Shown here piece by piece: positions 1 to 13,493 of a DNA stretch of 13,493 bases. Source of the stretch: a virus. Taxonomy: Duplodnaviria; Heunggongvirae; Uroviricota; Caudoviricetes. The position numbers and the translations under genes are program-made. Within the stretch, counting starts at the first letter, position 1, and each line of letters starts with the position of its first letter. The notes under the pieces were generated by a model, which ran no database searches, was not told the DNA's origin, and saw only the letters and a list, made by a program, of their open reading frames with translations. The stretch lies in IMG/VR virus record IMGVR_UViG_2690316346_000006, positions 1 through 13,493 of that record. One strand, given 5' to 3'.

Positions 1-51
1 ATCGGGCATTATCTGAACATAAAACACTATCAATAAGTTGGAGTCATTACC
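1..51 (+). mobile_element. IS1 terminal fragment (insB-proximal end including the terminal inverted repeat); body of the element lies upstream of the window
   Basis: Positions 1-51 are the exact reverse complement of 9926-9976 and 13443-13493, and match the remembered IS1 end ...CATCGGGCATTATCTGAACATAAAACACTATCAATAAGTTGGAGTCATTACC. Confidence 0.85.
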
Positions 52-183
52 AAACGGTTGAAATGTATGCCGCTACTTACGGGTCCTGTAATCCTCTGAA
101 TAAACCAGAGGGAAAAGATGATTTCGACAAAATTTACCGCTTCTTGGAGGACCGCTATATCAAAAGCTTAGAGGACGCAGGGA

Positions 184-561
184 TCAAATCCCCAGTGAAG
201 TCACCATTGTCCTGAGAACTTGCAGAACGTCATGATCATAACTTCCATCCAAACCGCGACGGCGAATTGCTTCTCGTATTACCGGAAGCAGTTCGCTGGA
301 AATCTCGGTGCATATTTCACCTGATAATACGCTTGGCTCAAGTGAGAATATTGGTGAACTTACGGTCTTGGTCTCGACAGTTTCAGAGTCAGTGCCAACA
401 TTATAAAGCTCAACGAAAGCGGTCTTGATTTTCCGGGCCAGATCTTTTGCTGGCTCGCTTGCAATATCTTTCCCGATTTCTCGCAGCACAGAATGCAATG
501 TATGAGCTGCTGTTTTCTGTACATCAGACGGTAAATCTTTAAATTCCATCGTCAGCCTCAT
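184..561 (-). CDS. hypothetical protein, 125 aa, second gene of a coupled two-gene operon
   Basis: ORF track. Its ATG (559-561) overlaps the stop of the upstream ORF (561-563) as ATGA on the minus strand. An alternative ATG at 547-549 has a GAGG 8 nt upstream. No recognisable motif. Confidence 0.5.
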   Translation of the reverse strand: MRLTMEFKDLPSDVQKTAAHTLHSVLREIGKDIASEPAKDLARKIKTAFVELYNVGTDSETVETKTVSSPIFSLEPSVLSGEICTEISSELLPVIREAIRRRGLDGSYDHDVLQVLRTMVTSLGI

Positions 562-767
562 CAGTCAGTGTTTCTGGCTAACCAGCAACGCGCGCCAGAT
601 TCGGTTTTAAACGTTTTGCTTTTGGTATACGTCATGGCGGTAAACGTTCCATCCTGGTTAGGGAACACGCCGCACACCAGAGATTCGTTGTTGCCAAGAT
701 CGATAGTATCCATGCTGACCTCATTTCCCCTTAACGCCGGGGTGGCGGAACAAAAAACCTGCTGCAT
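561..767 (-). CDS. small hypothetical protein (68 aa as listed; more likely about 50 aa from the internal ATG at 711-713)
   Basis: The internal ATG is preceded on the minus strand by TGAGGTcagcATG, a good Shine-Dalgarno; the listed start at 767 has none. Coupled via ATGA to the downstream ORF. Confidence 0.45.
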   Translation of the reverse strand: MQQVFCSATPALRGNEVSMDTIDLGNNESLVCGVFPNQDGTFTAMTYTKSKTFKTESGARCWLARNTD

Positions 768-953
768 AGTTAAAGATTGAACCCTGCCGTCATGTTCTTA
801 CGCCTCGGGCTGGCTACTTAACCCCTGACCACTGTCTGGTAACTCGAAGTATTGCCCTGCATTCTGTGGGGCGGGGTGGGTTGACGCCTGAAACAATAGC
901 ATCATTATTTTTTTTGATGTAAATAGCATCGCTATTGTTTTTTGTTGGGGCAA

Positions 954-976
954 GAAAAAACCACCCTAAGGTGGTT
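954..976 (-). terminator. rho-independent terminator for the minus-strand repressor/antitoxin/toxin transcript
   Basis: Plus strand reads aaaaaACCACCctaaGGTGGTT. On the minus strand this is a 7-bp stem with a 4-nt loop followed by a U-run, about 20 bp after the ParE-like stop at 993. Confidence 0.55.
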
Positions 977-992
977 CTGTCGGCGGGAATAA

Positions 993-1283
993 TTAACTGT
1001 TTTTGCCTGGATACTGTCTTCGAGAATGCACAATATTTACTACTTCTATGCTTGATGCTGTTACTCGGTAAAGGATGATGTAGTTAGGATGAGTTACAAT
1101 TTCACGAAGACCAAGAACTCGCTCGCTTGGAGGATACAGGTAAGGATGCTCTGTGAGCGGCAAAACGGATGTTTCAATTCGAATTTTCATTCTGCGTGCT
1201 GCCGCGGGATTTTCTTTAGCTATGTAGGCTACGATCTGGCGCAAATCATCACGAGCAGATGGTAGCCATAAAACGGGTAACAT
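993..1283 (-). CDS. parE: type II toxin, ParE/RelE superfamily
   Basis: 96 aa; sequence pattern (LPVLWLPSARDDL ... REIVTHPNYIILYRV ... VVNIVHSRRQYP) is typical of ParE-family toxins. Start overlaps the antitoxin stop (TAATG on the minus strand). Confidence 0.75.
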   Translation of the reverse strand: MLPVLWLPSARDDLRQIVAYIAKENPAAARRMKIRIETSVLPLTEHPYLYPPSERVLGLREIVTHPNYIILYRVTASSIEVVNIVHSRRQYPGKNS

Positions 1284-1477
1284 TATTCACCTCTGTGAGT
1301 TGCAGCAGCAATTTGGGCAATAATTTGTTCCATTTCCGCCATTACCTCATCATGCGGAATCGCCGGGCGGGGATCCGCGAGGCTTGCTGCTACTTTGGCC
1401 CGCAGCCATTCGTTGTAACTATTTTCTTGCTCAACTGTCTCAAATTCTGAAACCATTGGGGAAAGGACTGTACTCAT
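1283..1477 (-). CDS. paaA: small antitoxin, PaaA2-like, partner of the ParE-like toxin
   Basis: 64 aa, directly upstream of and overlapping the toxin gene. Segment SPMVSEFETVEQENSYNEWLRAKVAASLADPRPAIPHDEV matches my recollection of PaaA2 from the O157 paaR2-paaA2-parE2 system. AGGAGA lies 10 nt upstream of the ATG. Confidence 0.65.
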   Translation of the reverse strand: MSTVLSPMVSEFETVEQENSYNEWLRAKVAASLADPRPAIPHDEVMAEMEQIIAQIAAATHRGE

Positions 1478-1496
1478 TTTACATATCTCCTCTGAT

Positions 1497-1997
1497 TTAG
1501 GCGCGACGGCCTTTTTGTGCAGCTAACCACCGCGCAACCGTACGATCCATTGATTCTTTTTTATCTTTCATCTCCTGAAGCATGTGTTCTTGATCTTCTT
1601 TCGGAAAAGCTCTGAACGTATGGATTAAATCTCGTTCCATCGGCTCTACGGCAAACGGTAGTTCATCCTCTGTTTGTTCTGTGTCTGCTGGTAATGCGAC
1701 TATGTTATCTTGCTGTGGTTCTCGACAATACATCCTTGCAATTTGCAGCAAATCTACCATGTCTGGCCTGATTGACTCAGGGGGAACTTTCAGTAAGCCA
1801 GCAAACTTTAGAACAGCCTCAAGGTTTAGTGGGGTTTGACCATTTAGGTAGTGACTTACCGCCCCTTGTGTTGAAAACCCCATAATTTCCGCCGCACGTT
1901 CCTGAGTCAATCCCAACTGAGATTTCTTTGCCATCCAGATTTCTTTCAGTCTTCTGGCGGCGTTGAGGTCGGTGTCTGACAATGATTTTCTTTTCAT
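1497..1997 (-). CDS. cI-like HTH (XRE-family) repressor, probably PaaR2/RacR-like; ORF track extends to a GTG at 2027
   Basis: HTH motif region QLGLTQERAAEIMGFSTQGAVSHYLNG. Sits divergent to a Cro-like gene with a palindromic operator between them. The ATG at 1995-1997 (MKRKSL...) is favoured over the GTG at 2027, which has no Shine-Dalgarno. Confidence 0.7.
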   Translation of the reverse strand: MKRKSLSDTDLNAARRLKEIWMAKKSQLGLTQERAAEIMGFSTQGAVSHYLNGQTPLNLEAVLKFAGLLKVPPESIRPDMVDLLQIARMYCREPQQDNIVALPADTEQTEDELPFAVEPMERDLIHTFRAFPKEDQEHMLQEMKDKKESMDRTVARWLAAQKGRRA

Positions 1998-2027
1998 ACA
2001 TCCAATTCTAATAAGATTGCTAATCAC

Positions 2028-2108
2028 TTTGAAATAGTATCACTATTTACTTTTAAAAATAACAGTGCTATTAATTATGCATTGGTAACACATCACATAG
2101 GGCGGATT
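2028..2108. promoter_or_regulatory. divergent promoter/operator region between the repressor and the Cro-like gene; contains the palindrome AAATAGT-atc-ACTATTT (2032-2048)
   Basis: AT-rich 81-bp intergenic region between divergently oriented HTH genes. A perfect 7-bp inverted repeat with a 3-bp spacer is read directly from the sequence. Confidence 0.55.
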
Positions 2109-2372
2109 ATGAATCTTGGAGAATATTTGCATCATTTTCATATAACCCAGAGTTCATTTGCTGAGATTGTTGGCGCATCCCAAGGGATGGTCAGCCACGT
2201 TATAACGGGGCGTGCAAAACTTACAGGAGAAAAAATATTACGTTGGTGTGAAGCAACGGGATGGGTGGTGACCCCACATGAGATTGACAGTAAAACCTAC
2301 CCCAACCCAACTGACGGCTTGCCTGCTGAGTTTCAGGCTAACACACAACCATCGGCGGGGGTTGATTCATGA
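2109..2372 (+). CDS. ydaS: Cro-like HTH regulator (YdaS-like); ORF track start 2082, internal ATG at 2109 preferred
   Basis: HTH motif region ITQSSFAEIVGASQGMVSHVITG. Divergent from the repressor. GGGCGG lies 5 nt upstream of the ATG at 2109. Confidence 0.65.
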   Translation: MNLGEYLHHFHITQSSFAEIVGASQGMVSHVITGRAKLTGEKILRWCEATGWVVTPHEIDSKTYPNPTDGLPAEFQANTQPSAGVDS

Positions 2373-2794
2373 AAATCAAGCATGAACACATCCGCATGGC
2401 GATGAAAGCCTGGGCGCATCCGGACGGTGAAAAAGTTCCGGCAGCTGAAATAACCAGGGTTTATTTCGAACTGGGAATGACGTTTCCGGTTCTGCATAAC
2501 GACAGCAAGCACAACACGCTTTATCTCAACACCCAAAAGATTTTCCGTTGGCTGGATAAAGACACCCCTGACGCTGTTGAAAAAATTCAGGCGTTGTTAC
2601 CTGCGATCGAAAGGGCAATGCCACCTCCGCTGGTGGCTCGAATGCGCAGCCACAGTTCAGCTTATTTTCGGGAACTGGTGGAGACGCATGAACGACTGGT
2701 GAGAGACGCTGATGATTTTGTCGCAGTGGCAATCGCCGGTTTCAATCAGATGAACCGTGGTGGCCCGGCAGGAAATGCTGTGGCAGTACATTGA
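2369..2794 (+). CDS. ydaT: YdaT-like protein (proposed CII-like switch component in Rac-type prophages)
   Basis: 141 aa beginning MKIKHEH..., which matches my recollection of the YdaT N-terminus. Start overlaps the Cro-like stop (ATGA), indicating coupling. Confidence 0.5.
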   Translation: MKIKHEHIRMAMKAWAHPDGEKVPAAEITRVYFELGMTFPVLHNDSKHNTLYLNTQKIFRWLDKDTPDAVEKIQALLPAIERAMPPPLVARMRSHSSAYFRELVETHERLVRDADDFVAVAIAGFNQMNRGGPAGNAVAVH

Positions 2795-2865
2795 CTGACA
2801 ATAGCCATATCGAATCGCTCCCGGCAACTCGTGAGTAAAAAGATTCGGTATCAGAAGAGGTGAGT

Positions 2866-3930
2866 ATGGCTAACGCCTGGCTCAGATTATGGCATGACAT
2901 GCCAAATGACCCTAAGTGGCGAACAATTGCCAGGGTGTCAGGGCAGCCAATTGCAACAGTGATGGCAGTGTATATCCACCTCCTGGTGAGCGCGTCACGA
3001 AATGTCACGCGAGGTCACATTGATGTCACGACAGAAGATTTGGCAAGTGCGCTCGACGTGACAGAAGAGGTAATTGATTCAATTTTGCAGACGATGCAGG
3101 GGCGGGTACTTGATGGTGATTTAATCACTGGATGGGAAAAACGCCAGGTGCTTAAAGAGGACAACGGCAATATTTCGCAAACCGCAAAATCTCCTGCAGA
3201 GCGCAAGAGGGCGCAGCGAGAGAGGGAAAGAAAGCGGGAACAAAATGGCGATTGTCACGGCGCGTCACGAAATGTCACGCACATGTCACGACGAGTCACG
3301 ACAGATACAGATAAAGATACAGATAAAGAAGATCAAAACACTATGGTCCATGGCGTAAAAAACGCCACGAACCAGGCAGGGGATGTTCAGACCGTCAATC
3401 CTGGTCAGCCAGCAGGCTCGACACCGGAAGCCGATTCAGCGTATGCGCTGAAAGCCGATTCGGGCGCTGTGCAGCAGGTGATGACCGCAAGGCCGGAGCA
3501 ATCACTCCAACTGCAGCAGCCTGAAGCCGATTCCGCCATTCAGCGGGAAGCCGATCGGGTAGCCCCGGAAAACACCGGGCAGCCTGTGGGACGAGTGGAT
3601 TATCCGGATGTGTTCGAACAGGTCTGGCGGGAATACCCGTTGCGTGCCGGGGCAAACCCGAAGAAATCCGCATTCAGTGCCTGGAAGGCCAGATTGCGCG
3701 AGGGGGTGCCACCAGAGACCATGCTGGATGGTGTGAGGCGTTACGCGAGATACCTGGCGGCGACCGGGAAAGCGGGAACGGAATTTGTTCAGCGAGCGAC
3801 GACGTTTTTTGGGCCGGACCGGAATTTTGAAAACCCCTGGTTGCTCCCGGTAAGCGGCACGAACAACCAGCGTTGTGTGAATCATATTTCTGAACCGGAT
3901 ACCGAAATTCCGCCGGGATTCAGGGGGTGA
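2866..3930 (+). CDS. phage replication initiator 1 (O-like / YdaU-like), with origin iterons embedded in the coding sequence
   Basis: ATG at 2866 preceded by GAGGTG (track start GTG 2860). Lies immediately upstream of a DnaC-like gene. Contains two clusters of GTCACG direct repeats. C-terminus ends IPPGFRG, as in the second initiator. Confidence 0.7.
   Translation: MANAWLRLWHDMPNDPKWRTIARVSGQPIATVMAVYIHLLVSASRNVTRGHIDVTTEDLASALDVTEEVIDSILQTMQGRVLDGDLITGWEKRQVLKEDNGNISQTAKSPAERKRAQRERERKREQNGDCHGASRNVTHMSRRVTTDTDKDTDKEDQNTMVHGVKNATNQAGDVQTVNPGQPAGSTPEADSAYALKADSGAVQQVMTARPEQSLQLQQPEADSAIQREADRVAPENTGQPVGRVDYPDVFEQVWREYPLRAGANPKKSAFSAWKARLREGVPPETMLDGVRRYARYLAATGKAGTEFVQRATTFFGPDRNFENPWLLPVSGTNNQRCVNHISEPDTEIPPGFRG
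2993..3030 (+). repeat. iteron cluster 1 of putative origin 1: four GTCACG/GTCAC repeats at 10-11 bp spacing
   Basis: Repeats begin at 2993, 3003, 3014 and 3025, read directly from the sequence. Confidence 0.6.
3254..3300 (+). repeat. iteron cluster 2 of putative origin 1: five GTCACG repeats at 10-11 bp spacing, followed by an ACAGATA-rich AT-rich stretch
   Basis: Repeats begin at 3254, 3264, 3274, 3285 and 3295. The roughly 45-bp unit is near-identical to cluster 1. Confidence 0.6.
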
Positions 3931-3936
3931 TGTGGC

Positions 3937-4683
3937 ATGAAAAACATTGCGGCAGCCGGGGTTCTTGAACGTATTCACAGACTTGCACCACAGGGGGCGG
4001 TTCCACCGTACCGGACGGTGGAGGAGTGGCGGGAATGGCAACTTGCTGAAGGACGAAAACGCAGCGAGGAGATTAACCGCCAGAATCGCCAGTTGCGGGT
4101 GGAAAAAATCCTGAATCGTTCGGGCATCCAGCCTCTGCACAGCAAATGCTCGTTTGCGAATTATCAGGTGCAGAACGACGGGCAAAAATACGCGCTGAGC
4201 CAGGCCAAATCCATAGCTGACGAACTGATGACCGGGTGCACGAATTTTGTGTTCAGCGGTAAAACCGGCACCGGGAAAAATCACCTTGCAGCGGCGATGG
4301 GTAACCGGCTGATGGCGAAGGGGCGCAGCGTGATTATCGTCACCGAGTCTGATGTCATGAGCGTGTTGCATGACAGCTACGACAACGGCAAATCCGGTGA
4401 AAAATTTTTACAGGAGCTTTGCGGGGTTGATTTGCTGGTCCTGGATGAAATAGGCATTCAGCGGGAGACGAAAAACGAGCAGGTGGTATTGCACCAGATA
4501 ATTGATCGCCGGACAGCATCACTGTGCAGTGTCGGGATGTTAACAAACCTGAATCATGCCGCAATGAGCACGCTTCTTGGTGAGAGGATTATGGACCGCA
4601 TGACCATGAACGGTTGTCGGTGGGTGACGTTTAACTGGGATAGCTGGCGTTCAAATGTCAGCTTTCCGGGAGTTGTGAAGTAA
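3937..4683 (+). CDS. DnaC-like helicase loader (YdaV-like), copy 1
   Basis: 248 aa with Walker A-like SGKTGTGKNHLAAA and Walker B-like DLLVLDEIG, as in DnaC. Follows the initiator with 6-bp spacing. Confidence 0.85.
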   Translation: MKNIAAAGVLERIHRLAPQGAVPPYRTVEEWREWQLAEGRKRSEEINRQNRQLRVEKILNRSGIQPLHSKCSFANYQVQNDGQKYALSQAKSIADELMTGCTNFVFSGKTGTGKNHLAAAMGNRLMAKGRSVIIVTESDVMSVLHDSYDNGKSGEKFLQELCGVDLLVLDEIGIQRETKNEQVVLHQIIDRRTASLCSVGMLTNLNHAAMSTLLGERIMDRMTMNGCRWVTFNWDSWRSNVSFPGVVK

Positions 4684-4704
4684 TTTTTGTTGGAGGATGT
4701 TTTA

Positions 4705-5430
4705 ATGGAAACTGTATTTGACGCACTGAAAGCACTGAAAAGAGCCTCTTCACATGTGGTGGCGTCCCGCCTTGGAATCAGCCGTGAAGATGCGGTCAAC
4801 GAACTGTGGAAACTGAAGCGCCGTGGTGAAGCGGATAACAAGGGTTCGATGTGGTGGCTGATTCAGGCTGGTGAAAGTGAACCAGTGTCACCGGTACCGA
4901 AAGTGACAGCGCAAATGCTGACTGAGGCGATTGAACAACATGGCCCACAAACGGCGGATGAGCTGGCACTGATGTTCGGGATTACCTCCCGCCGGGCGAA
5001 TTCATCGCTGGCCATGGCAATCAGCAAAGGGCGTCTGATTCGCGTGAATCAGGGCGGTAAATTTCGGTACTGCATACCGGGCGCTGATTTACCGGCAGAG
5101 CCGAAAGCCGCATCCATAGCGGAAACGGATGGTAAAGTCTTTCCTCAGCCAGCAGGTGTTGCGTTACCGGTACAGGAAGCTGCAACACAGGAAGAAATTA
5201 AAACAGAAACTGTGGCGGACATTGTGCAGTCGTTGCCATCGTTCACCGAAACGCAAGCGGATGACCTGGTTTTACCATCGCTGCATATGGCAAACCGCGA
5301 ACTGCGTCGGGCGAAAAGTCATGTCCAGAAGTGGGAGCGTGTCTGCGCCGCGTTGCGGGAGCTGAACAAGCACCGGGATATTGTTCGACAGATTGTCGAT
5401 TCCTCCGGTCGTATTGTGTCGGAAAAGTGA
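4705..5430 (+). CDS. hypothetical protein, possibly YdaW-like; present only in module 1
   Basis: ORF track lists a TTG start at 4687; the ATG at 4705 has GGAGG 8 nt upstream. No catalytic motif recognised. Confidence 0.55.
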
Positions 5431-5445
5431 TTGCCGGGGGCGCTT

Positions 5446-5868
5446 ATGGCAAAAGTATTTACACAGGAAGAGCGGGAAAAAATTAAGGGGCAGGTTGTTG
5501 AACTCGTACGCCAGAGTGGGCGCGAGACGTTACGACAACTGGAAGCTAAAACCGGGGCGACAAGATATTTAATAAGCGTTCTCGCCAGAGAGCTGGTTGC
5601 CAGTGGGGATGTATACAACTCTGGCTACGGGTTATTCCCGTCTGAACAGGCTCGTAAGGACTGGCAAAACGCCCGCAAAAAACTCTCGAGGGCAAAGCTG
5701 AAGAAACCATCTGTGGTTGATCCGGACCTTATCTGGTCATTACCGGACGGAGAAATACGCCGCTACGACAGACATCAGAACATAATCTGTCGCGAGTGCC
5801 GGAAGAGTGAAGTTATGCAGCGTGTACCGGCTTTCTATCAGGGTGATTTTCAGGAGGCGGTACTGTGA
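5446..5868 (+). CDS. hypothetical protein (about 140 aa), paralog of 9117-9539
   Basis: ATG at 5446 preferred over the listed TTG at 5431. The C-terminal ~90 aa are near-identical to the 9117-9539 product; the N-terminal ~50 aa are diverged. Confidence 0.6.
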   Translation: MAKVFTQEEREKIKGQVVELVRQSGRETLRQLEAKTGATRYLISVLARELVASGDVYNSGYGLFPSEQARKDWQNARKKLSRAKLKKPSVVDPDLIWSLPDGEIRRYDRHQNIICRECRKSEVMQRVPAFYQGDFQEAVL

Positions 5869-6282
5869 GTGAAATTAGCTATCAGGCTTCAATTACCGCT
5901 GGCATTCGCATCAAAGGAGAGGAGCATGGAAATAAAACCAGAAGATGAGTTAAGCAATATTGTTTTATTTCCGGTAAAAGAGGATAACCCTCGTAATCAG
6001 GTTAATTTTCTTTATGAGCCATCGGAAAGACCATATTGCCATCACGCTTCTGTCCGGGTTGACGAAAAAGAGCGTCAGGTCCGCTGTAAAATCTGCGGTG
6101 CGGTTGTGGAGCCGTTTGACTGGATGCTCTCTGTGGCGAAAAGAGAAACCAGACTGGCAGATGATGTAAGGCTCTTGCGCCAGGAGGAGCGGGAAAGGCG
6201 AAAAAATATAGAAAAGCTAATCCAGATTGAGCGTAACGCGAAAGCGCGGATACGCAGGGCGACAAAATCCAGAACTGAATAA
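5869..6282 (+). CDS. hypothetical small protein with a putative zinc-ribbon motif (C-H-H ... C-x2-C); copy A
   Basis: Listed start is GTG at 5869. An internal ATG at 5926 has a strong Shine-Dalgarno (AAGGAGaggagcATG) and gives 118 aa. Motif YCHHASVRVDEKERQVRCKICG. Two further copies lie at 9540-9925 and 10695-11035. Confidence 0.6.
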   Translation: MKLAIRLQLPLAFASKERSMEIKPEDELSNIVLFPVKEDNPRNQVNFLYEPSERPYCHHASVRVDEKERQVRCKICGAVVEPFDWMLSVAKRETRLADDVRLLRQEERERRKNIEKLIQIERNAKARIRRATKSRTE

Positions 6283-6309
6283 TTAAATTTAGCACTGTTA
6301 AAAATTTAA
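6283..6309. repeat. AT-rich palindrome TTAAATTT-N11-AAATTTAA immediately after the stop of the zinc-ribbon gene; repeated at 11036-11062
   Basis: Read directly from the sequence; present after copies A and C, and homology between them ends just beyond it. Confidence 0.4.
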
Positions 6310-6421
6310 TCCTTAATAACCTTTTTATTCTTTGCCACGGGTTCCGTGGCGGGAGATTATGCCGCGTGAACATGAAGATGAGGTGTACTGGCAATAGCGG
6401 ACACTACCATTTGTTCTTTTT

Positions 6422-7240
6422 TTAAGCAGCCATCTGATGATATTTTTCCCTGAAGGCTGCCGGGGAGATATTCCCCAGACGAGAGTGACGACGCTGACGA
6501 TTGTAGAAAATCTCAATGTATTCCCGTATTACTGAGATGGCTTCATCCCGGTTATTAAAACGATAGTGGCTCAGGCTCTCATTTTTCAGCGTTCCCCAGA
6601 AGCTTTCCATCGGAGCGTTGTCGTAACAGTTACCTTTACGCGACATTGATGTTTTCAGACCAGACTGCTCCTGTATGACCCGGTAATCGTATGCGCAGTA
6701 CTGTGAACCTCGATCAGAGTGGTGGATTAGCCCGGCAGGTGGGCGCTGGCTCCTGAGCGCCATAAACAGGGCTTTACCTGTCAGCTCTTTTGTCATGCGC
6801 TCTCCCATGGCGTAGCCGACAATTTCGCACGTATAAACATCTTTGATGCCAGCGAGGTACAACCATCCCTCCTGTGTGGCAACATACGTCAGGTCCGCCA
6901 CCCAGACCTGATTTGGTGCTGTAGGAGCGAACGTCTGGTTCAGCAGATTTGGCGCAACTGGCAGATTGTGGTTCGAGTTCGTAGTCGCTCTGAACTTGCG
7001 TTTCTGCTTACAGCGTAGCCTTAGCTCCTTACGAAGACGTGCCAGTCGGTCACGACCAACGATGATGCCATTCTCTGCCAGCTCCGTCTGGAGCCGCCGG
7101 GTTCCATATGTTTCGCGAGTGCGGATATGTGCCACCTTAATCTCCAGTTTTAGCCGCTCATCACTTTGTTTTCTGTCTGAGGGTTCATGCTGTACCCAGT
7201 TGTAATAACCGCTCCTGGATACACCAAATACCTGACACAT
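6422..7240 (-). CDS. IS3-family transposase OrfB (DDE catalytic part), expressed as an OrfAB fusion by -1 frameshifting
   Basis: 272-aa ORF with DDE-type transposase signatures (HSDRGSQY ... conserved acidic residues) in the -1 frame relative to orfA. Confidence 0.8.
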   Translation of the reverse strand: MCQVFGVSRSGYYNWVQHEPSDRKQSDERLKLEIKVAHIRTRETYGTRRLQTELAENGIIVGRDRLARLRKELRLRCKQKRKFRATTNSNHNLPVAPNLLNQTFAPTAPNQVWVADLTYVATQEGWLYLAGIKDVYTCEIVGYAMGERMTKELTGKALFMALRSQRPPAGLIHHSDRGSQYCAYDYRVIQEQSGLKTSMSRKGNCYDNAPMESFWGTLKNESLSHYRFNNRDEAISVIREYIEIFYNRQRRHSRLGNISPAAFREKYHQMAA

Positions 7241-7275
7241 CGCTTCAATGGGAAATTGTTGTCGCCATTGTTCGA

Positions 7276-7578
7276 TTAACGCGTATTTTTCAGCGACTCC
7301 TGTGCAAAATACGCTGTTGCTTTTTTTAATATATCTCGCTCAAGGCGAGCTTCATTTAACGCCTTACGCAGTTGCAGAATTTCAGATTCCAGTTCAGCCA
7401 CCGTGCGGGAACCAGGAGTACCGAGCCCTTTTCTGGCGGCGGTAACCCATTGTCCTAAAGTGCCTTCAGGAAGAGATAATCGGGAAGCGCCTTCACTGAT
7501 CGAAAGTTGATTTTCAAGAACCGTTCTGACAGCTTCGGCTTTGAACTCTTTAGAGTAACGTTGGGTTTTTCTGCTCAT
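7276..7578 (-). CDS. IS3-family transposase OrfA (HTH part)
   Basis: 100 aa, MSRKTQRYSKEFKAEAVRTV..., which I recognise as IS600/IS3-group OrfA. Confidence 0.8.
   Translation of the reverse strand: MSRKTQRYSKEFKAEAVRTVLENQLSISEGASRLSLPEGTLGQWVTAARKGLGTPGSRTVAELESEILQLRKALNEARLERDILKKATAYFAQESLKNTR
7320..7327 (-). promoter_or_regulatory. programmed -1 ribosomal frameshift site (A AAA AAG) within the orfA/orfB overlap of the IS3-family element
   Basis: Minus-strand sequence TTAAAAAAAGC lies where orfA and orfB overlap, as is typical of IS3-family elements. Confidence 0.6.
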
Positions 7579-7698
7579 TATTAGCTCCTTCTGATGCCAT
7601 TCTATTTCAGGAAGGAGTGTCCGTTAAACTCAGGCTACCTCAGGTTATTCGCTTCTGGGCATGGGCGGATCAACAAATGATAGACGGTAATGCAGATT

Positions 7699-7950
7699 GT
7701 AACGCTCGCGGCGTTACAAAAAGTGCAATAGATCGCATCACTTTTATGTCTGGTTTTGCTGATGCGTTAATTCAGGTTGGATGGCTGGTCGAAAATGACG
7801 GAGGGCTTTCTCTACCTAACTTTGAACGTCATAACGGAAAAAGCTCTAAAAAAAACGGGCGGTTACAAACGAGCGAGTAACAAAAATACGCGAACTGAAA
7901 CGAAAAGGTAACGCTGCCAGCGTTACACAAACGGATCAAAAAGCGTTACC
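7699..7950 (+). repeat. putative origin 2 binding sites: two copies of the palindrome GTAACGC-N5-GCGTTAC (7699-7717, 7908-7926) plus half-sites at 7862-7866 and 7943-7949
   Basis: Read directly from the sequence. Located inside the linker-coding region of initiator 2, analogous to the iterons inside initiator 1 but of a different sequence. Confidence 0.45.
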
Positions 7951-7952
7951 AG

Positions 7953-8000
7953 AGGAAGAGGAAGAGGAAGAGGAAGAGGAAGAGGAAGAGGAAGAGGAAG
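7953..8000 (+). repeat. perfect tandem hexanucleotide repeat (AGGAAG)8; encodes Glu16 in the frame that appears to be coding for the initiator 2 linker
   Basis: 48 bp of uninterrupted AGGAAG units counted directly from the sequence. Confidence 0.9.
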
Positions 8001-8355
8001 ATCTAAATACTGATCTCCCCCTCGCCAAAAACGAGCGTCTAAAAAATTCGAGCCGGAGGCTATTGAGCTGCCCGATTGGTTGCCGGAAACACTCTGGCAT
8101 GAGTGGGTCCGGTTCAGACAGGCATTGCGAAAACCGATTCGAACGGAGCAGGGCGCTAACGGGGCGATACGGGAACTGGAAAAATTCCGTCAGCAGGGTT
8201 TTACACCTGAGCAGGTGATTCGACACAGCATCGCCAATGAATACCAGGGCCTGTTCGCGCCGAAAGGTGTTCGGCCTGAGACGTTGCTCCGACAGGTTAA
8301 CACCGTCTCGTTGCCGGACAGTGCGATCCCGCCAGGCTTCAGGGGGTAACGGACC

Positions 8356-9102
8356 ATGAAAAATATTGCGACAGGCGGCGTTCTGGAACGCATCCGCCGA
8401 CTGACCCCGCCACATGTAACCGCCCCATTCAGAACGGTAGCGGAGTGGCGCGAGTGGCAACTTGCTGAAGGCCAGAAACGTAGCGAGGAGATCAACCGCC
8501 TGAATCGCCAGTTGCGGGTGGAAAAAATTCTGAATCGCTCAGGCATCCAGCCGTTGCACCGTAAATGCTCGTTTGCGAATTACCAGGTGCAGAACGACGG
8601 CCAGCGATACGCGTTAAGCCAGGCGAAATCCATCGCCGATGAACTGATGACCGGGTGTACAAATTTTGCGTTCAGCGGAAAACCTGGTACCGGGAAGAAT
8701 CACTTAGCGGCAGCTATCGGGAATCGCCTGCTGAAAGACGGTCAGACAGTGATTGTGGTTACCGTGGCTGATGTTATGAGCGCCCTGCACGCCAGCTATG
8801 ACGACGGGCAGTCAGGCGAAAAATTTTTGCGGGAGCTGTGCGAAGTGGATCTGCTGGTTCTTGATGAAATTGGCATTCAGCGCGAGACGAAAAACGAGCA
8901 GGTGGTGCTGCACCAGATTGTTGATCGCCGGACAGCGTCGATGCGCAGCGTGGGGATGCTGACAAACCTGAACTATGAGGTGATGAAAACATTGCTCGGC
9001 GAGCGGGTGATGGATCGCATGGTCATGAACGGCGGGCGCTGGGTGAATTTTAACTGGGAGAGCTGGCGTCCGAATGTTAGCCATTCGAGGGTTGTTAAGT
9101 AG
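8356..9102 (+). CDS. DnaC-like helicase loader, copy 2 (roughly 85% amino-acid identity to copy 1 by eye)
   Basis: 248 aa with SGKPGTGKNHLAAA and DLLVLDEIG motifs; same length and architecture as 3937-4683. Confidence 0.85.
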   Translation: MKNIATGGVLERIRRLTPPHVTAPFRTVAEWREWQLAEGQKRSEEINRLNRQLRVEKILNRSGIQPLHRKCSFANYQVQNDGQRYALSQAKSIADELMTGCTNFAFSGKPGTGKNHLAAAIGNRLLKDGQTVIVVTVADVMSALHASYDDGQSGEKFLRELCEVDLLVLDEIGIQRETKNEQVVLHQIVDRRTASMRSVGMLTNLNYEVMKTLLGERVMDRMVMNGGRWVNFNWESWRPNVSHSRVVK

Positions 9103-9116
9103 TTTCAGGAGGATTT

Positions 9117-9539
9117 ATGGCGAAACCTTTTACTCCCGAACAGCGGGAAGAACTGAAGACGCGAATTGTGGAACTCGTGCATCAGGACGGTCGGGTCACG
9201 ATTCGGCAGTTGTCAGATGAAACAGGTATCAGTCGTGCGTCTGTCGGTCGCTTATGCATAGAACTGGTCGCAAGTGGTGATGTATATAATTCTGGCTACG
9301 GCTTATTCCCGTCTGAACAGGCTCGCAAGGACTGGCAAAGCGCCCGCAAAAAACTCTCGAGAGTAAAGGTGAGGAAACCGGTTGTTGTTGATCCGGACCT
9401 TATCTGGTCATTACCTGACGGAGAAATACGCCGCTACGACAGGCGCCTGAATATAATCTGTCGCGAGTGCCGGAAGAGCGAAGCTATGCAGCGTGTACTG
9501 GCTTTCTATCAGGGTAATTTTCAGGAGGCGATACTGTGA
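9117..9539 (+). CDS. hypothetical protein, paralog of 5446-5868 with a diverged N-terminus
   Basis: 140 aa; C-terminal region (ELVASGDVYNSGYGLFPSEQARKDWQ ... IICRECRKSE ...) nearly identical to copy 1. Confidence 0.6.
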   Translation: MAKPFTPEQREELKTRIVELVHQDGRVTIRQLSDETGISRASVGRLCIELVASGDVYNSGYGLFPSEQARKDWQSARKKLSRVKVRKPVVVDPDLIWSLPDGEIRRYDRRLNIICRECRKSEAMQRVLAFYQGNFQEAIL

Positions 9540-10007
9540 ATGAAATTAGCTATCAGGCTTCAATTACCGCTGGCATTCGCATCAAAGGAGAGGAGCATGG
9601 AAATAAAACCAGAAGATGAGTTAAGCAATATTGTTTTATTTCCGGTAAAAGAGGATAACCCACGTAATCAGGTTAATTTTCTTTATGAACCATCGGAAAG
9701 ACCATATTGCCATCACGCCTCTGTCCGGGTTGACGAAAAAGAGCGTCAGGTCCGCTGTAAAATTTGCGGTGCAGTTGTGGAGCCATTTGACTGGATGCTC
9801 TCTGTGGCGAAAAGAGAAACCAGACTGGCAGATGATGTAAGGCTATTGCGCCAGGAGGAACAGGAAAGGCGGAGAAATATAGAAAAGCTGATACAGATTG
9901 AGCGTAACGCGAAAGCGCGGATACGCGGTAATGACTCCAACTTATTGATAGTGTTTTATGTTCAGATAATGCCCGATGACTTTGTCATGCAGCTCCACCG
10001 ATTTTGA
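9540..10007 (+). pseudogene. zinc-ribbon small gene copy B, 3'-truncated at 9925 by IS1; the ORF reads on into IS1, giving a chimeric 26-aa tail
   Basis: Homology to copy A ends exactly at the IS1 end (...gcgcggatacgc|ggtaatgac). Translation continues ...ARIR then [26 protein letters not shown] from the IS1 sequence. Confidence 0.7.
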
Positions 10008-10445
10008 GAACGACAGCGACTTCCGTCCCAGCCGTGCCAGGTGCTGCCTCAGATTCAGGTTATGCCGCTCAATTCGCTGCGTATATCGCTTGCTGATTAC
10101 GTGCAGCTTTCCCTTCAGGCGGGATTCATACAGCGGCCAGCCATCCGTCATCCATATCACCACGTCAAAGGGTGACAGCAGGCTCATAAGACGCCCCAGC
10201 GTCGCCATAGTGCGTTCACCGAATACGTGCGCAACAACCGTCTTCCGGAGACTGTCATACGCGTAAAACAGCCAGCGCTGGCGCGATTTAGCCCCGACAT
10301 AGCCCCACTGTTCGTCCATTTCCGCGCAGACGATGACGTCACTGCCCGGCTGTATGCGCGAGGTTACCGACTGCGGCCTGAGTTTTTTAAGTGACGTAAA
10401 ATCGTGTTGAGGCCAACGCCCATAATGCGTGCAGTTGCCCGGCAT
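9942..10445 (-). CDS. insB: IS1 InsB (expressed as an InsAB' fusion by frameshifting)
   Basis: 167 aa, ...[62 protein letters not shown]..., recognised as IS1 InsB. Confidence 0.9.
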
Positions 10446-10639
10446 CCAACGCCATTCATGGCCATATCAATGATTTTCTGGTGCGTACCGGGTTGAGAAG
10501 CGGTGTAAGTGAACTGCAGTTGCCATGTTTTACGGCAGTGAGAGCAGAGATAGCGCTGATGTCCGGCAGTGCTTTTGCCGTTACGCACCACCCCGTCAGT
10601 AGCTGAACAGGAGGGACAGCTGATAGAAACAGAAGCCAC
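10364..10639 (-). CDS. insA: IS1 InsA
   Basis: 91 aa, [42 protein letters not shown]..., recognised as IS1 InsA. Confidence 0.9.
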
Positions 10640-10694
10640 TGGAGCACCTCAAAAACACCATCATACACTAAATCAGTAAGTTGGCAGCATCACC

Positions 10695-11035
10695 AAGATG
10701 AGTTAAGCAATATCGTTTTATTTCCGGTAAAAGAGGATGACCCTCGTAATCAGGTTAATTTTCTTTATGAGCCATCGGAAAGACCATATTGCCATCACGC
10801 CTCTGTACGGGTTGACGAAAAAGAGCGTCAGGTCCGCTGTAAAATCTGCGGTGCGGTTGTGGAGCCGTTTGACTGGATGCTCTCTGTGGCAAAAAGAGAA
10901 ACCAGACTGGCAGATGATGTAAGGCTATTGCGCCAGGAGGAACAGGAAAGGCGGAGAAATATAGAAAAGCTGATACAGATTGAGCGTAACGCGAAAGCGC
11001 GGATACGCAGGGCGACAAAATCCAGAACTGAATAA
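10695..11035 (+). pseudogene. zinc-ribbon small gene copy C, 5'-truncated (lacks the first ~5 codons); mosaic of copies A and B
   Basis: Begins abruptly at the IS1 end with aagatgagttaagc..., matching codon 6 onward of copy A. Its 5' half carries copy-A-type variants and its 3' half copy-B-type variants. Stop at 11033-11035. Confidence 0.65.
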
Positions 11036-11104
11036 TTAAATTTAGCACTGTTAAAAATTTAATCCTTAACCGGAGGGATTTCTGCACCCTCAAATCATCA
11101 GGAG

Positions 11105-11122
11105 ACCGCCCGAAAGGGCGGT
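11105..11122 (+). other. stable GC-rich hairpin with a GAAA tetraloop (ACCGCCC-gaaa-GGGCGGT), 5 nt upstream of the ATG at 11128
   Basis: Read directly from the sequence. No U-run follows, so it is not a canonical terminator; it could occlude a ribosome-binding region or stabilise an mRNA. Confidence 0.4.
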
Positions 11123-11127
11123 AATGA

Positions 11128-11346
11128 ATGGTTACATTATTTAGAAAAAAATATCCGCGAAAGAGTAGAACAACAGAATTCCTGTTTCTCATTCTGTTTA
11201 TCGTGTTGATGACACCGATATCCCCGCTAATTTTTGTCTGGATAATCGGAAAAATAATTGAGCCAGTTATTGAATTGTATAACGACGTGGTATGGGCGTC
11301 ATTCAACACACTGCACAATAAAATTAATCCGTATAAGGAAAGCTGA
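11128..11346 (+). CDS. small hydrophobic (probably membrane) protein, 72 aa
   Basis: ORF track; hydrophobic core FLFLILFIVLMTPISPLIFVWIIG. No clear Shine-Dalgarno, so the call is tentative. Confidence 0.35.
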   Translation: MVTLFRKKYPRKSRTTEFLFLILFIVLMTPISPLIFVWIIGKIIEPVIELYNDVVWASFNTLHNKINPYKES

Positions 11347-11713
11347 TATGGCACTGACGAAAAAACAACGTGCAGAACTGCGCATGAAGTTCGGTGGTCG
11401 CTGCGCTTATTGCGGCTGCGAACTTGGCGAAAAGTGGCATGCAGACCATGTAAAACCGGTCATTCGTTTTGATGGAAATATGCTTCACCAGGAACGTGAC
11501 GATATATCCAACATGGTACCAGCATGCCACCCATGCAATCTGCACAAGCATTGCAGTAGCCTGGAAGATTATCGACGAATTATCAGTGATGGTCGTCGTG
11601 AATTCCTTGCGTCCGGGAAAGGCAAAGCGCTGGTTCGTATGGGATTGGTTGAAATGAAATCTGACCCGGTTGTGTTCTGGTTTGAAAAATATCAAGAAGG
11701 GGCTACGGCATGA
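11347..11713 (+). CDS. HNH endonuclease
   Basis: ATG at 11347 with AAGGAAA upstream (ORF track extends to 11258). Motifs CAYCGC ... HADH ... N ... ACHPCNLHKH are typical of HNH nucleases. Confidence 0.75.
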
Positions 11714-12375
11714 CCACTATTACCAAAGAGCGACTGCAATGGCTGGCTAACATTTCTGGCCGCGATGATATTGACGATATAGACGGCGGTGAAATTCGTG
11801 AACTGGCGCTTATCGCTCTGGCATCACTGGAAGCAGAGCCTGTAGCGGAATGCATTGTTGAAGATGGGGGCATGTGTATTGACGGGTTCGGTGAGTATGT
11901 GGGTCACTCGCTGCCTGATGGAATGCATGAGCTTTATGCTGCCCCGCGAATGCGACAACCTGATGGATGGAAAGCCGTAGCTGTAGCGTGGAAGGTGACG
12001 TTTACTCAAGTTGACCAGGAATCTAATACGTTCACTGCTATATATTTTGACAAAGCGGAAGTTGAGTGTTGGGTACGACTGCATAAAGCATGTGATTTTC
12101 GGGCAGATATAACACCGCTTTACGCAGCGCCGGCAGTGCCGGTTGCAGTAAACGACGACATGGCTTACGCATTCCATCACGCACTGTCAGATTCATCGCT
12201 TGGCTCTGATGAAATCGAAGAAATTAAAACCGGTTTGCGTGCTGCCTTTGCCAACGTCACTATCCAACCAGAGCCGATAGTGCCGGATGAAATCGGGCCA
12301 AACGATAGTAATACGTTTGATTATGTTGATGGCTGGAACGCCTGCCGCGCTGCCATGCTTAAGGGAGATAAATAA
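11710..12375 (+). CDS. hypothetical phage protein, 221 aa, acidic
   Basis: ORF track; start overlaps the HNH stop (ATGA). No motif recognised. Confidence 0.6.
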   Translation: MTTITKERLQWLANISGRDDIDDIDGGEIRELALIALASLEAEPVAECIVEDGGMCIDGFGEYVGHSLPDGMHELYAAPRMRQPDGWKAVAVAWKVTFTQVDQESNTFTAIYFDKAEVECWVRLHKACDFRADITPLYAAPAVPVAVNDDMAYAFHHALSDSSLGSDEIEEIKTGLRAAFANVTIQPEPIVPDEIGPNDSNTFDYVDGWNACRAAMLKGDK

Positions 12376-12740
12376 TGATTAATCGAACCAAACTGGAGCA
12401 CATTCTCGAATATGCCAGGCAGCAGAAATGTATTGGGCAACTTTGTAAAATTCCACCAGGAGATATGGTTGAAATCGTGGAAATGGCCATGCGTAAGGCT
12501 GGCAACTCTCCGGTAGCTCCGGCTGGCTGGATAAGCTGTAGTGATGCAGTTCCTGCTGAATATTGCGATGTGATTCTTCTCGATGATCTCGGGAATGTAT
12601 TCCCCGGTTCCTGGGATAAGGTTTTTTGCCCCACTCGTGGCGGGAATAAGATGGCTTTTGTGGACAAAGACGGCGTTGAAGTAGAGAGCTCAACTCACTG
12701 GATGCCGCTACCGGAACCACCGCAGGAGGTGAATCAATGA
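12375..12740 (+). CDS. hypothetical phage protein with a DUF551-like C-terminus
   Basis: 121 aa; WISCSDAVP ... THWMPLPEPP resembles the DUF551 signature as I recall it. Confidence 0.6.
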   Translation: MINRTKLEHILEYARQQKCIGQLCKIPPGDMVEIVEMAMRKAGNSPVAPAGWISCSDAVPAEYCDVILLDDLGNVFPGSWDKVFCPTRGGNKMAFVDKDGVEVESSTHWMPLPEPPQEVNQ

Positions 12741-12820
12741 CCTGGCCTGAGGCATTCACCACGGTAGGAATTGCGATGGCGGTGGCGCTGGTGGTGTATT
12801 CGATTTGCCGTTGGGGTTAA
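12737..12820 (+). CDS. unlisted small ORF, 27 aa (MTWPEAFTTVGIAMAVALVVYSICRWG), predicted single transmembrane helix
   Basis: Perfect Shine-Dalgarno AGGAGGTGA 6 nt upstream of the ATG at 12737. Start overlaps the upstream stop (ATGA). A rho-independent terminator follows immediately. Below the length cut-off of the ORF track. Confidence 0.5.
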   Translation: MTWPEAFTTVGIAMAVALVVYSICRWG

Positions 12821-12825
12821 CAAAC

Positions 12826-12857
12826 AAAAACCCCGGATTGATGGTCCGGGGTTTTTG
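12826..12857 (+). terminator. rho-independent terminator (AAAAA-CCCCGGA-ttgatgg-TCCGGGG-TTTTT), potentially bidirectional
   Basis: 7-bp GC-rich stem, 7-nt loop and a T5 run, read directly from the sequence; 6 bp after the stop of the small ORF. Confidence 0.8.
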
Positions 12858-13195
12858 AAGGAAACAAAACAGAAACAGCAATTGCCGTTACCTGTTGTTA
12901 CCATGGCAAGTAAACGTATCTCAGGCGAGCGCATTGCGCCGTTCTGACGCAGATAAACTAGCCTGGATAGATGGTGCTGGCAATAAAAAATAGCGTTTTC
13001 TTATCGGTGTCGGTAAGATTGCTGCGGGTGCTTGAGGCTGTCTGCCTCGGGTATGTCACTGTAAGGCAGACAGAGAAAAGCCCCAGTTAACATTACGCGT
13101 CCTGCAAGACGCTTAACATTAATCTGAGGCCCAATCTATGTCTCACAAATGTAGGTTAGCCTCTTACGTGCCGAAAGGCAAGGAGAAGCAGGCTA

Positions 13196-13350
13196 TGAAG
13201 CAGCAAAAGGCGATGTTAATCGCCCTGATCGTCATCTGTTTAACCGTCATTGTGACGGCACTGGTAACGAGGAAAGACCTCTGCGAGGTACGAATCCGAA
13301 TCGGCCAGACGGAGGTCGCTGTTTTCGTAGACTACGAATCTAGAGAGTAA
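13196..13350 (+). CDS. hok: Hok/Gef-family type I toxin (closest by memory to HokD/RelF or HokC)
   Basis: MKQQKAMLIALIVICLTVIVTALVTRKDLCEVRIRIGQTEVAVFVDYESRE; AAGGAG lies 9 nt upstream of the ATG at 13196. The ORF track extends in frame to an ATG at 13138. Confidence 0.85.
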
Positions 13351-13442
13351 GAGTGACCAGGCGGGAGAGTAATCTCCCGCCACCTTTGATGTGTCAGGCA
13401 TCCTCAACGCACCCGCACTTAACCCGTTTCGGCGGTTTTTTT

Positions 13443-13493
13443 GGTAATGACTCCAACTTATTGATAGTGTTTTATGTTCAGATAATGCCCGAT
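13443..13493 (-). mobile_element. IS1 terminal fragment (insB-proximal end), element in minus orientation with its body downstream of the window
   Basis: Identical to 9926-9976 and the exact reverse complement of 1-51. Confidence 0.85.

Follow-up and report, generated by a model that had tools for sequence, protein, structure and literature searches.

AcrZ, MgtS, MgrB, MgtR, KdpF and CydX of Escherichia coli and Salmonella are proteins of fewer than 50 residues with one hydrophobic helix, which are missed by annotation pipelines and are believed to pack against a larger membrane protein. The present analysis concerns a 27-codon open reading frame (ORF) in a 13,493-nt stretch of a caudoviral genome (IMG/VR record IMGVR_UViG_2690316346_000006, positions 1 to 13,493; the window), whose predicted product MTWPEAFTTVGIAMAVALVVYSICRWG is likewise short, one-helix and unannotated. 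It has, however, no sequence relationship to the proteins named and belongs to a family of 27 amino acids (aa) that is phage-borne, mobile and multi-copy. The inner-membrane superinfection-exclusion proteins T4 Imm, P22 SieA and HK97 gp15 are small and expressed early or from the prophage; like the peptide they are small phage membrane proteins, but they are larger and without detectable similarity to it. DicB of the Qin prophage also differs, having 62 aa and no transmembrane helix, and Qin has no homolog of the peptide. One report (PMC6832061) describes DicB as protecting E. coli from phage by inhibiting inner-membrane receptor proteins, and on that description a small protein of a lambdoid-prophage early region that acts on host membrane-associated processes is a precedent for a modulator or exclusion role.

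Two systems are neighbours of the new ORF. The Hok/Gef peptides are small, hydrophobic, phage- or plasmid-borne and located in the membrane, and a hok locus adjoins the ORF in 45 % of its contexts. However, the peptide does not match the HOK_GEF family, a consensus promoter scan and Rfam gave no sign of antisense-RNA control of its gene, a controlling mRNA fold was likewise not detected, and its strong ribosome binding site appears exposed and coupled to the preceding gene. ECs_5710 (XECs145) of the Sakai prophage Sp6 is a tiny hydrophobic ORF that shares this location: it follows the Sp6 member of the present family at a distance of 35 nt and precedes hok. However, its sequence MSDDISLAMEGALAVIAVVGVYCLVVFLMDRLGN is unrelated, and it is now annotated in the Sakai RefSeq record, whereas the 27-aa ORF is not.

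The 27-codon frame and its conservation

The small ORF was found as the preliminary description had given it, with an ATG at 12737 and a TAA at 12818-12820. Also confirmed was the overlap of its start with the stop of a DUF551-like gene: the TGA (12738-12740) of a 121-aa gene, assigned to DUF551 by Pfam, forms an exact ATGA (12737-12740) with the ATG. The strong Shine-Dalgarno (SD) sequence AGGAGGTGA stood as well, while the proposed spacing of 6 nt was approximately right, with 7 nt from the AGGAGG core and 4 nt from the full 9-mer to the ATG. Chance ORFs of such a size are common, as 27 ORFs of at least 20 codons overlap the last 1.5 kb of the window. A single example is therefore trivially expected, and the case for a gene rests on comparative data.

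The frame is conserved over the family. A degenerate-pattern scan of IMG/VR yielded at least 120 loci. Although the pattern allowed gaps of 45-60 nt, the distance between ATG and stop was 84 nt in almost every one of them. This pattern presupposes start and stop, and integrity was retested with anchors that fix only the upstream junction. With the anchor CAGGAGGTGAATCAATGA an intact 27-codon homolog was present in 124 of 125 evaluable loci. The anchor GGAGGATRTTTTRCGATGA gave 92 intact, two stop-loss and about four disrupted copies, i.e. 92 intact among about 98 module-bearing loci; about 24 further loci differ after the junction. A local tblastn search over all fetched loci located 280 family places, 267 of them intact with 27 codons. 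The others have 24 codons (three), an in-frame deletion of two codons (one), a lost stop (two), a TGG-to-stop change at codon 3 (four) or a frameshift near the start (three). Internal indels were absent even in copies down to 59 % amino-acid identity. By the preliminary description, a loss of the frame in homologous regions would have spoken against the gene; the frame was kept.

Purifying selection acts on the amino-acid sequence of the peptide. Among 55 unique 84-nt sequences, the ratio of non-synonymous to synonymous differences per site (pN/pS) was 0.34 in the frame of the ORF. The remaining sense frames gave 1.02 and 2.05, and two antisense frames 1.24 and 2.33; the third antisense frame, which shares the wobble position, gave 0.33. 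Parsimony on a neighbour-joining tree of 93 unique sequences counted 146 synonymous and 132 non-synonymous changes, distributed 65/60/153 over the three codon positions, with a rough ratio of substitution rates (dN/dS) of about 0.3; random mutation is expected to give 24 % synonymous changes (binomial P = 1e-24). The replacements were mostly A/V, V/I, M/L/I, T/S/A and F/L swaps. Near-invariant residues are M1, W3, P4, A6, G11, A15, A17, Y21, I23, C24, W26 and G27, and variation falls on positions 2, 8, 10, 12, 14, 16 and 19. Codon 2 always starts with A (T/S/N/I), because the ATGA overlap requires this base. A comparison of synonymous with non-synonymous changes had been named as a check on the ORF, and the bias to synonymous changes, together with the kept frame, supports the earlier view of a probably genuine small gene that length filters miss.

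The best 19-residue Kyte-Doolittle mean of the peptide (2.11) is reached by no other of the 104 ORFs of 22-40 codons in the window, among which the small ORF itself is counted. Over the family the median is 2.11 and the minimum 1.46, compared to a 95th percentile of 1.58 in the control. One bilayer-long hydrophobic segment, flanked by the conserved residues W3, Y21, W26 and R25, is consistent with a single-pass membrane protein and agrees with the single hydrophobic helix predicted before. No Pfam, NCBIfam or PHROG family matched the peptide above threshold. The KdpF model TIGR02115 aligned 12 residues with 14.7 bits, below its cut-off of 26.85, and the DUF883_C glycine zipper (PF19029) reached 14 bits, below the Pfam gathering threshold of 27. 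The best PHROG match was phrog_4612, a family of unknown function, with E=0.019; other variants matched different PHROGs with E of at least 0.1. In Pfam the peptide had no match to HOK_GEF, whereas the neighbouring hok gene had a highly significant one (Table 1). No Rfam family above threshold covers the small ORF.

Two other identities of the peptide were rejected. A lipobox is defined as L-[AS]-[GAS]-C, with a small residue (G/A/S) at position -1 before the cysteine, preceded by a positively charged n-region. A lipoprotein signal peptide processed at Cys24 does not conform to it: among 59 unique peptides, position 23 is I in 55, L in two and V in two, never small, and the N-terminus carries E/D and no K/R. 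A programmed frameshift fusion to the upstream protein was dismissed in view of the own SD and ATG, the unrelated upstream genes and the lack of a visible slippery heptamer.

The peptides constitute a narrow mobile family of about 27 residues in lambdoid and Shiga toxin (Stx) phages of Escherichia and Shigella, occasionally in P1-like phages and virulent Vequintavirinae. A tblastn search of 50,697 phage records matched the peptide in 94 records with 59-100 % identity, including 933W, VT1/VT2-Sakai, Min27, BP-4795 and ArgO145, the P1-like SJ46 with a 24-residue version, and the virulent Vequintavirinae Av-05 and TH18. The 84-nt ORF was found in 1558 of 5426 complete E. coli genomes (about 29 %) at 2512 places, up to 6 per genome and 161 on plasmids. 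In 185,579 species-representative GTDB genomes the degenerate pattern had true matches in just two species, E. coli and Shigella flexneri; a further 44 hits, of scattered lengths, were due to chance. A homolog was not found in the K-12 prophages DLP12, e14, Rac and Qin, so that K-12 ribosome-profiling sets cannot help.

The ORF had been called unlisted, and this held in the records inspected. The Prokaryotic Genome Annotation Pipeline (PGAP) omits it in the 99.8 %-identical E. coli FDAARGOS_944, in two other E. coli genomes and in O157 Sakai, and it is unannotated in all ten phage records inspected. The exact peptide has a few GenBank annotations at NCBI, as 'bacteriophage protein' or 'hypothetical protein'. 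A protein database search with the peptide and its in-frame N-terminal extension to 40 aa returned 71 short calls of 25-59 aa, which all came from Escherichia (E. coli and E. albertii among them), Shigella or Salmonella and were without a functional name; a larger protein that uses the peptide as anchor was not among these matches. The peptide sequence was not found by a literal search of literature text.

Some variant copies and database entries need comment. The copies with TGG-to-stop at Trp3 (Shigella phage POCJ13, locus L009, 2501-2581; L185; L261; and one more) are, with the three start-frameshifts, pseudogenised. Length variants in the protein set (P0037, P0042, P0043, P0021, P0070, P0073) are stop-loss C-terminal extensions from a recombination junction, one of which occurs on 62 contigs; the same set holds an expansion of an AM-dipeptide repeat, a 15-residue N-terminal duplication and a 2-residue insertion. 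Partial peptide calls at contig ends (P0012, P0017, P0031, P0032 and others) are mislabelled 'DUF551 domain-containing protein, partial', and clustering at 90 % identity chained the 27-aa peptide into the cluster of an unrelated 121-aa DUF551 protein, an artefact. In Stx2 phage II (L435, 201-950, minus strand) a 249-aa 'ORF C38' lies antisense to an L0139-like gene and the small ORF and looks like a spurious call of an early annotation. The 'hypothetical protein (x2)' of this phage beneath the match is a spurious antisense call and was not accepted as the peptide.

Junctions and genomic contexts

The conserved unit is a self-contained module of SD, ATG and 27 codons. Of the 280 family places 277 begin with ATGA, the remaining three being the copies frameshifted near the start, and the upstream frame that ends at the junction TGA has a median length of 164 codons. 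An SD-like 4-mer at -17 to -4 was present in all 280 places, across 39 distinct upstream 25-mers. The preceding genes vary by locus and include DUF551 proteins of 120-308 aa, a 114-aa protein, L0139 of 933W, gp123 of Av-05 and gp092 of SJ46. Many E. coli matches become similar precisely from the first base of the ATG onward (query position 363). The upstream proteins were compared by their C-terminal 64 residues, as shared N-terminal modules made single-linkage clustering on whole proteins uninformative. Their C-termini fell into at least five unrelated clusters, one of which has nearly the entire DUF551 domain deleted and the peptide retained. The commonest upstream partners carry DUF551, and four of nine tested upstream proteins are without it. 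Both the unrelated clusters and these four proteins ruled out an obligate pairing with DUF551.

Downstream sequences were even more variable than upstream ones, with 83 distinct contexts. A hok locus was located within 700 nt in 80 of 176 distinct contexts (45 %) and absent from the other 96 (55 %); about 30 % of hok-anchored viral loci carry the ORF upstream. An obligate pairing with hok was discarded on these figures. In the arrangement of the 933W type, 39 nt separate the end of the ORF from the 5' element of the hok mRNA. In the loci examined the peptide gene was shown to be the last cistron behind varied early accessory genes of the exo-xis (pL) and nin (pR) regions. The virulent Vequintavirinae phage Av-05 (L006, 1842-2581) has a lambdoid-type 'ea' cassette, in which a homolog of the 221-aa protein of the window, with the tail ...DYVDGWNACRAAMLK, is ATGA-coupled directly to the peptide gene and no DUF551 gene lies between.

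The preliminary description had also assigned the ORF its own terminator. A strong hairpin with a T-run is present just 3' of the ORF in the window, at slightly corrected distances of 5 nt from the stop to the A-tract arm and 10 nt to the G+C stem. Its G+C core (12831-12837 / 12845-12851) of 7 bp is enclosed by A- and T-tract arms and followed by TTTTT (12852-12856), the characteristics of a rho-independent terminator. The folding energy is -23 kcal/mol (z = -4.5), and none of 200 shuffled sequences folded as well. Its symmetric A/T arms render the hairpin bidirectional, which is why the terminator scan reported it for the minus strand. A terminator-like hairpin followed the ORF in only 9 of the 83 distinct downstream contexts; the terminator is a property of the arrangement in the window and not of the peptide family.

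Table 1 Features at the small ORF (positions in the window)
Feature	Position	Strand	Basis or remark
27-codon ORF, predicted single transmembrane helix	12737..12820	+	sequence, conserved length and frame, purifying selection, hydropathy 2.11
Shine-Dalgarno sequence AGGAGGTGA	12724..12732	+	sequence; lies within the final codons (QEV) of the DUF551 gene
Upstream DUF551 gene, translational-coupling partner in the window	12375..12740	+	Pfam DUF551, E=3.4e-19
Bidirectional intrinsic-terminator-like hairpin, arrangement-specific	12825..12857	.	folding and terminator scan
hok/mok/sok locus, frequent non-obligate neighbour	13026..13350	+	Rfam sok, 118 bits, E=5e-28; Pfam HOK_GEF, E=1.7e-21

The window is the decayed early region of a lambdoid prophage, ridden with insertion sequences (IS). 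It contains genes for a helix-turn-helix repressor, YdaS- and YdaT-like proteins, replication proteins, DUF1627 and DUF977, followed by those for DUF4014, an HNH protein, the 221-aa protein and DUF551. Beyond the small ORF follow the terminator and, about 200 nt 3' of the ORF, a complete hok/mok/sok type I toxin-antitoxin locus. E. coli FDAARGOS_944, the nearest complete genome, continues into DUF1367, DUF1364, DUF1133 and ORF6N genes. Inverted copies of an IS1-family terminal sequence form the ends of the window (1-54 and 13440-13493), with a solo copy of 51 nt at 9927-9977. IS1 thus interrupts the prophage directly behind hok, as is typical for Shigella-like genomes, and the identical DUF551 protein is reported mainly from Shigella. 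An IS3-family element (about 6422-7578, minus strand; orfA 7276..7578, orfB 6422..7240) is flanked by partly duplicated early-region segments: 3937-4683 versus 8356-9102, and 5586-6316 versus 9257-9926 and 10695-11069. The DNA repeats are 93.6 % and 96.8 % identical, and two DnaC/IstB-like paralogs share 80.6 % identity. This suggests that two prophage early regions were joined or duplicated around the IS3-family element.

In Sakai, the Sp6 copy of the family is MIWPEAFAITGVAIAIDFLVYVICRWG (NC_002695.2, 1550843..1550926), and the XECs145 ORF begins inside its last 22 nt. The order in this locus (L349, 3344-3567) is the 27-aa ORF, ECs_5710 at a distance of 35 nt, and then mokC/hokC. A ribosome-profiling (RIBOseq) study of Sakai, which excluded ORFs below 30 aa, recorded strong translation of the 34-aa membrane peptide ECs_5710, with 346 reads per kilobase per million mapped reads (RPKM) in LB and a coverage of 0.99 (PMC5597208). 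The 27-aa peptide is absent from the supplements of that study (Hücker 2017) because of the 30-aa cutoff. As XECs145 is translated, the Sp6 locus is transcribed and covered by ribosomes; the reads are not assignable to the 27-aa frame. Homologs of the 34-aa ECs_5710 lie directly upstream of hok in other viral contigs (L354, L360), and there seems to be an accumulation of small hydrophobic ORFs in front of hok loci.

Proposed role and rival explanations

With moderate confidence we favour a genuine protein-coding gene whose product would be an inner-membrane micro-protein of phage early accessory cassettes, acting by helix-helix packing. Ribosomes that end the upstream gene would re-initiate on the small ORF, and the product would insert into the inner membrane as one helix, approximately from A6 to C24. 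Trp3 on one side and Tyr21/Trp26 on the other would mark the two interfaces, and Arg25 would be cytoplasmic. An N-out/C-in topology is likely by the positive-inside rule, because Arg25 is located at the C-end and the single acidic residue at the N-end. Small residues (A6, C24 and the run G11-x-A13-x-A15-x-A17) lie on two helix faces, the usual signature of tight helix-helix packing, and A6, G11, A13, A15, A17 and C24 may form such packing faces. The peptide would bind another membrane helix of host, phage or self and modify the activity of this partner during early phage development. A toxin or a modulator of host membrane proteins had been suggested in the preliminary description. Virulent phages, namely Av-05 and its relatives, also carry the peptide gene, which speaks for a function during the infection cycle and not only in lysogeny.

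Several points weigh against this reading. Topology and helix packing are deductions from the sequence and general rules for membrane proteins, and translation, membrane insertion and the binding of a partner are likewise predictions. Homology to any characterised protein was not found in Pfam, NCBIfam, PHROG or the N-extended protein search. Many copies are near-identical recent relatives, so that the intact counts overstate independent events. The disruption of about 7 copies and the existence of several variants with a lost stop or an expanded repeat indicate that the gene is dispensable in prophages. Finally, pN/pS is equally low in the wobble-sharing antisense frame. This frame was treated as non-coding for two reasons: a value that mirrors the sense signal is to be expected there, and in the window the single minus-strand ORF listed in this frame (12379..12762) overlaps the small ORF by no more than 26 nt.

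The peptide may instead be a membrane-damaging toxin or holin-like pore former in the manner of type I toxins, oligomerising and dissipating the membrane potential for host shut-off or abortive killing; we regard this as unlikely. The product is small, very hydrophobic and single-helix, the conserved small residues on two opposite faces fit self-association, the hok/sok locus often adjoins (80 of 176 contexts) and other small hydrophobic ORFs are likewise placed upstream of hok. However, it matched neither HOK_GEF nor any toxin family, and a charged or amphipathic tail, which such toxins typically have, is missing. Translation of type I toxins is tightly blocked, whereas the SD of the small ORF is strong and appears exposed, with coupling to the preceding genes. 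A consensus scan, from which weak promoters may escape, detected no promoter-like site on either strand of 12300-13493, and Rfam sok maps only to 13026-13200. A single genome can also maintain as many as 6 intact copies of the gene. The near-universal ATGA coupling and the DUF551 domain of the commonest upstream partners would suit a peptide that tethers the preceding gene product (DUF551, Ea22-type or others) to the membrane or partners it; the coupling would secure joint expression, and the pair would be the functional unit. The unrelated upstream C-terminal clusters, at least five in number, the retention of the peptide behind an almost wholly deleted DUF551 and the four of nine tested upstream proteins without this domain render such a pair quite improbable.

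Alternatively, the act of translation might be all that matters: ribosomes led up to the terminator or the hok promoter would modulate termination, Rho polarity or read-through into hok, and the peptide itself would be irrelevant. A ribosome terminating 10 nt before the G+C stem of the window would cover part of its 5' arm, and the 933W-type ORF ends 39 nt before the hok mRNA element. Purifying selection on the amino-acid sequence, the length fixed at 27 codons and the diversity of the 83 downstream contexts, of which only 9 have a terminator, in addition to the 55 % of contexts without hok, leave this explanation highly improbable. Least credible of all is a chance ORF that owes its conservation to an underlying nucleotide element, for instance a recombination junction or an RNA structure. 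In its favour the abundance of such ORFs by chance, the omission from the RefSeq records inspected and the coincidence of mosaic boundaries with the ORF ends could be quoted. The variation is concentrated at third codon positions (65/60/153) in a frame-specific manner, internal indels are absent down to 59 % amino-acid identity, start, SD and stop are kept in unrelated contexts, and no Rfam family above threshold lies over the ORF. There is also a faint chance that the peptide belongs to a set of tiny hydrophobic peptides placed by phages directly upstream of hok/sok (the 27-aa family, the 34-aa ECs_5710 family and others) which assist or oppose Hok; a helix-packing antagonist, for instance, could shield the phage-infected or lysogenic cell from it. 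If true, this would place a new protein-level layer on the type I toxin-antitoxin system.

Meaning for phage accessory regions

The predicted peptide is an essentially unannotated addition to the small membrane proteins encoded by phages. Its gene is carried by about 29 % of the complete E. coli genomes and by 933W, Sakai and other Stx phages, but neither the inspected RefSeq records nor Pfam, NCBIfam and PHROGs contain it. Published work has linked exo-xis genes to the lysis-lysogeny decision and to the induction of Stx prophages (PMC3824215, PMC7093339); no mention of the peptide was found in the exo-xis papers searched. Should the ORF be part of plasmid or deletion constructs of the exo-xis region, it would be an unrecognised variable in them. 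ATGA-coupled micro-ORFs at the end of phage accessory genes merit systematic annotation, and this short, highly conserved and easily mutated ORF is a tractable candidate for a new phage-host membrane interaction.

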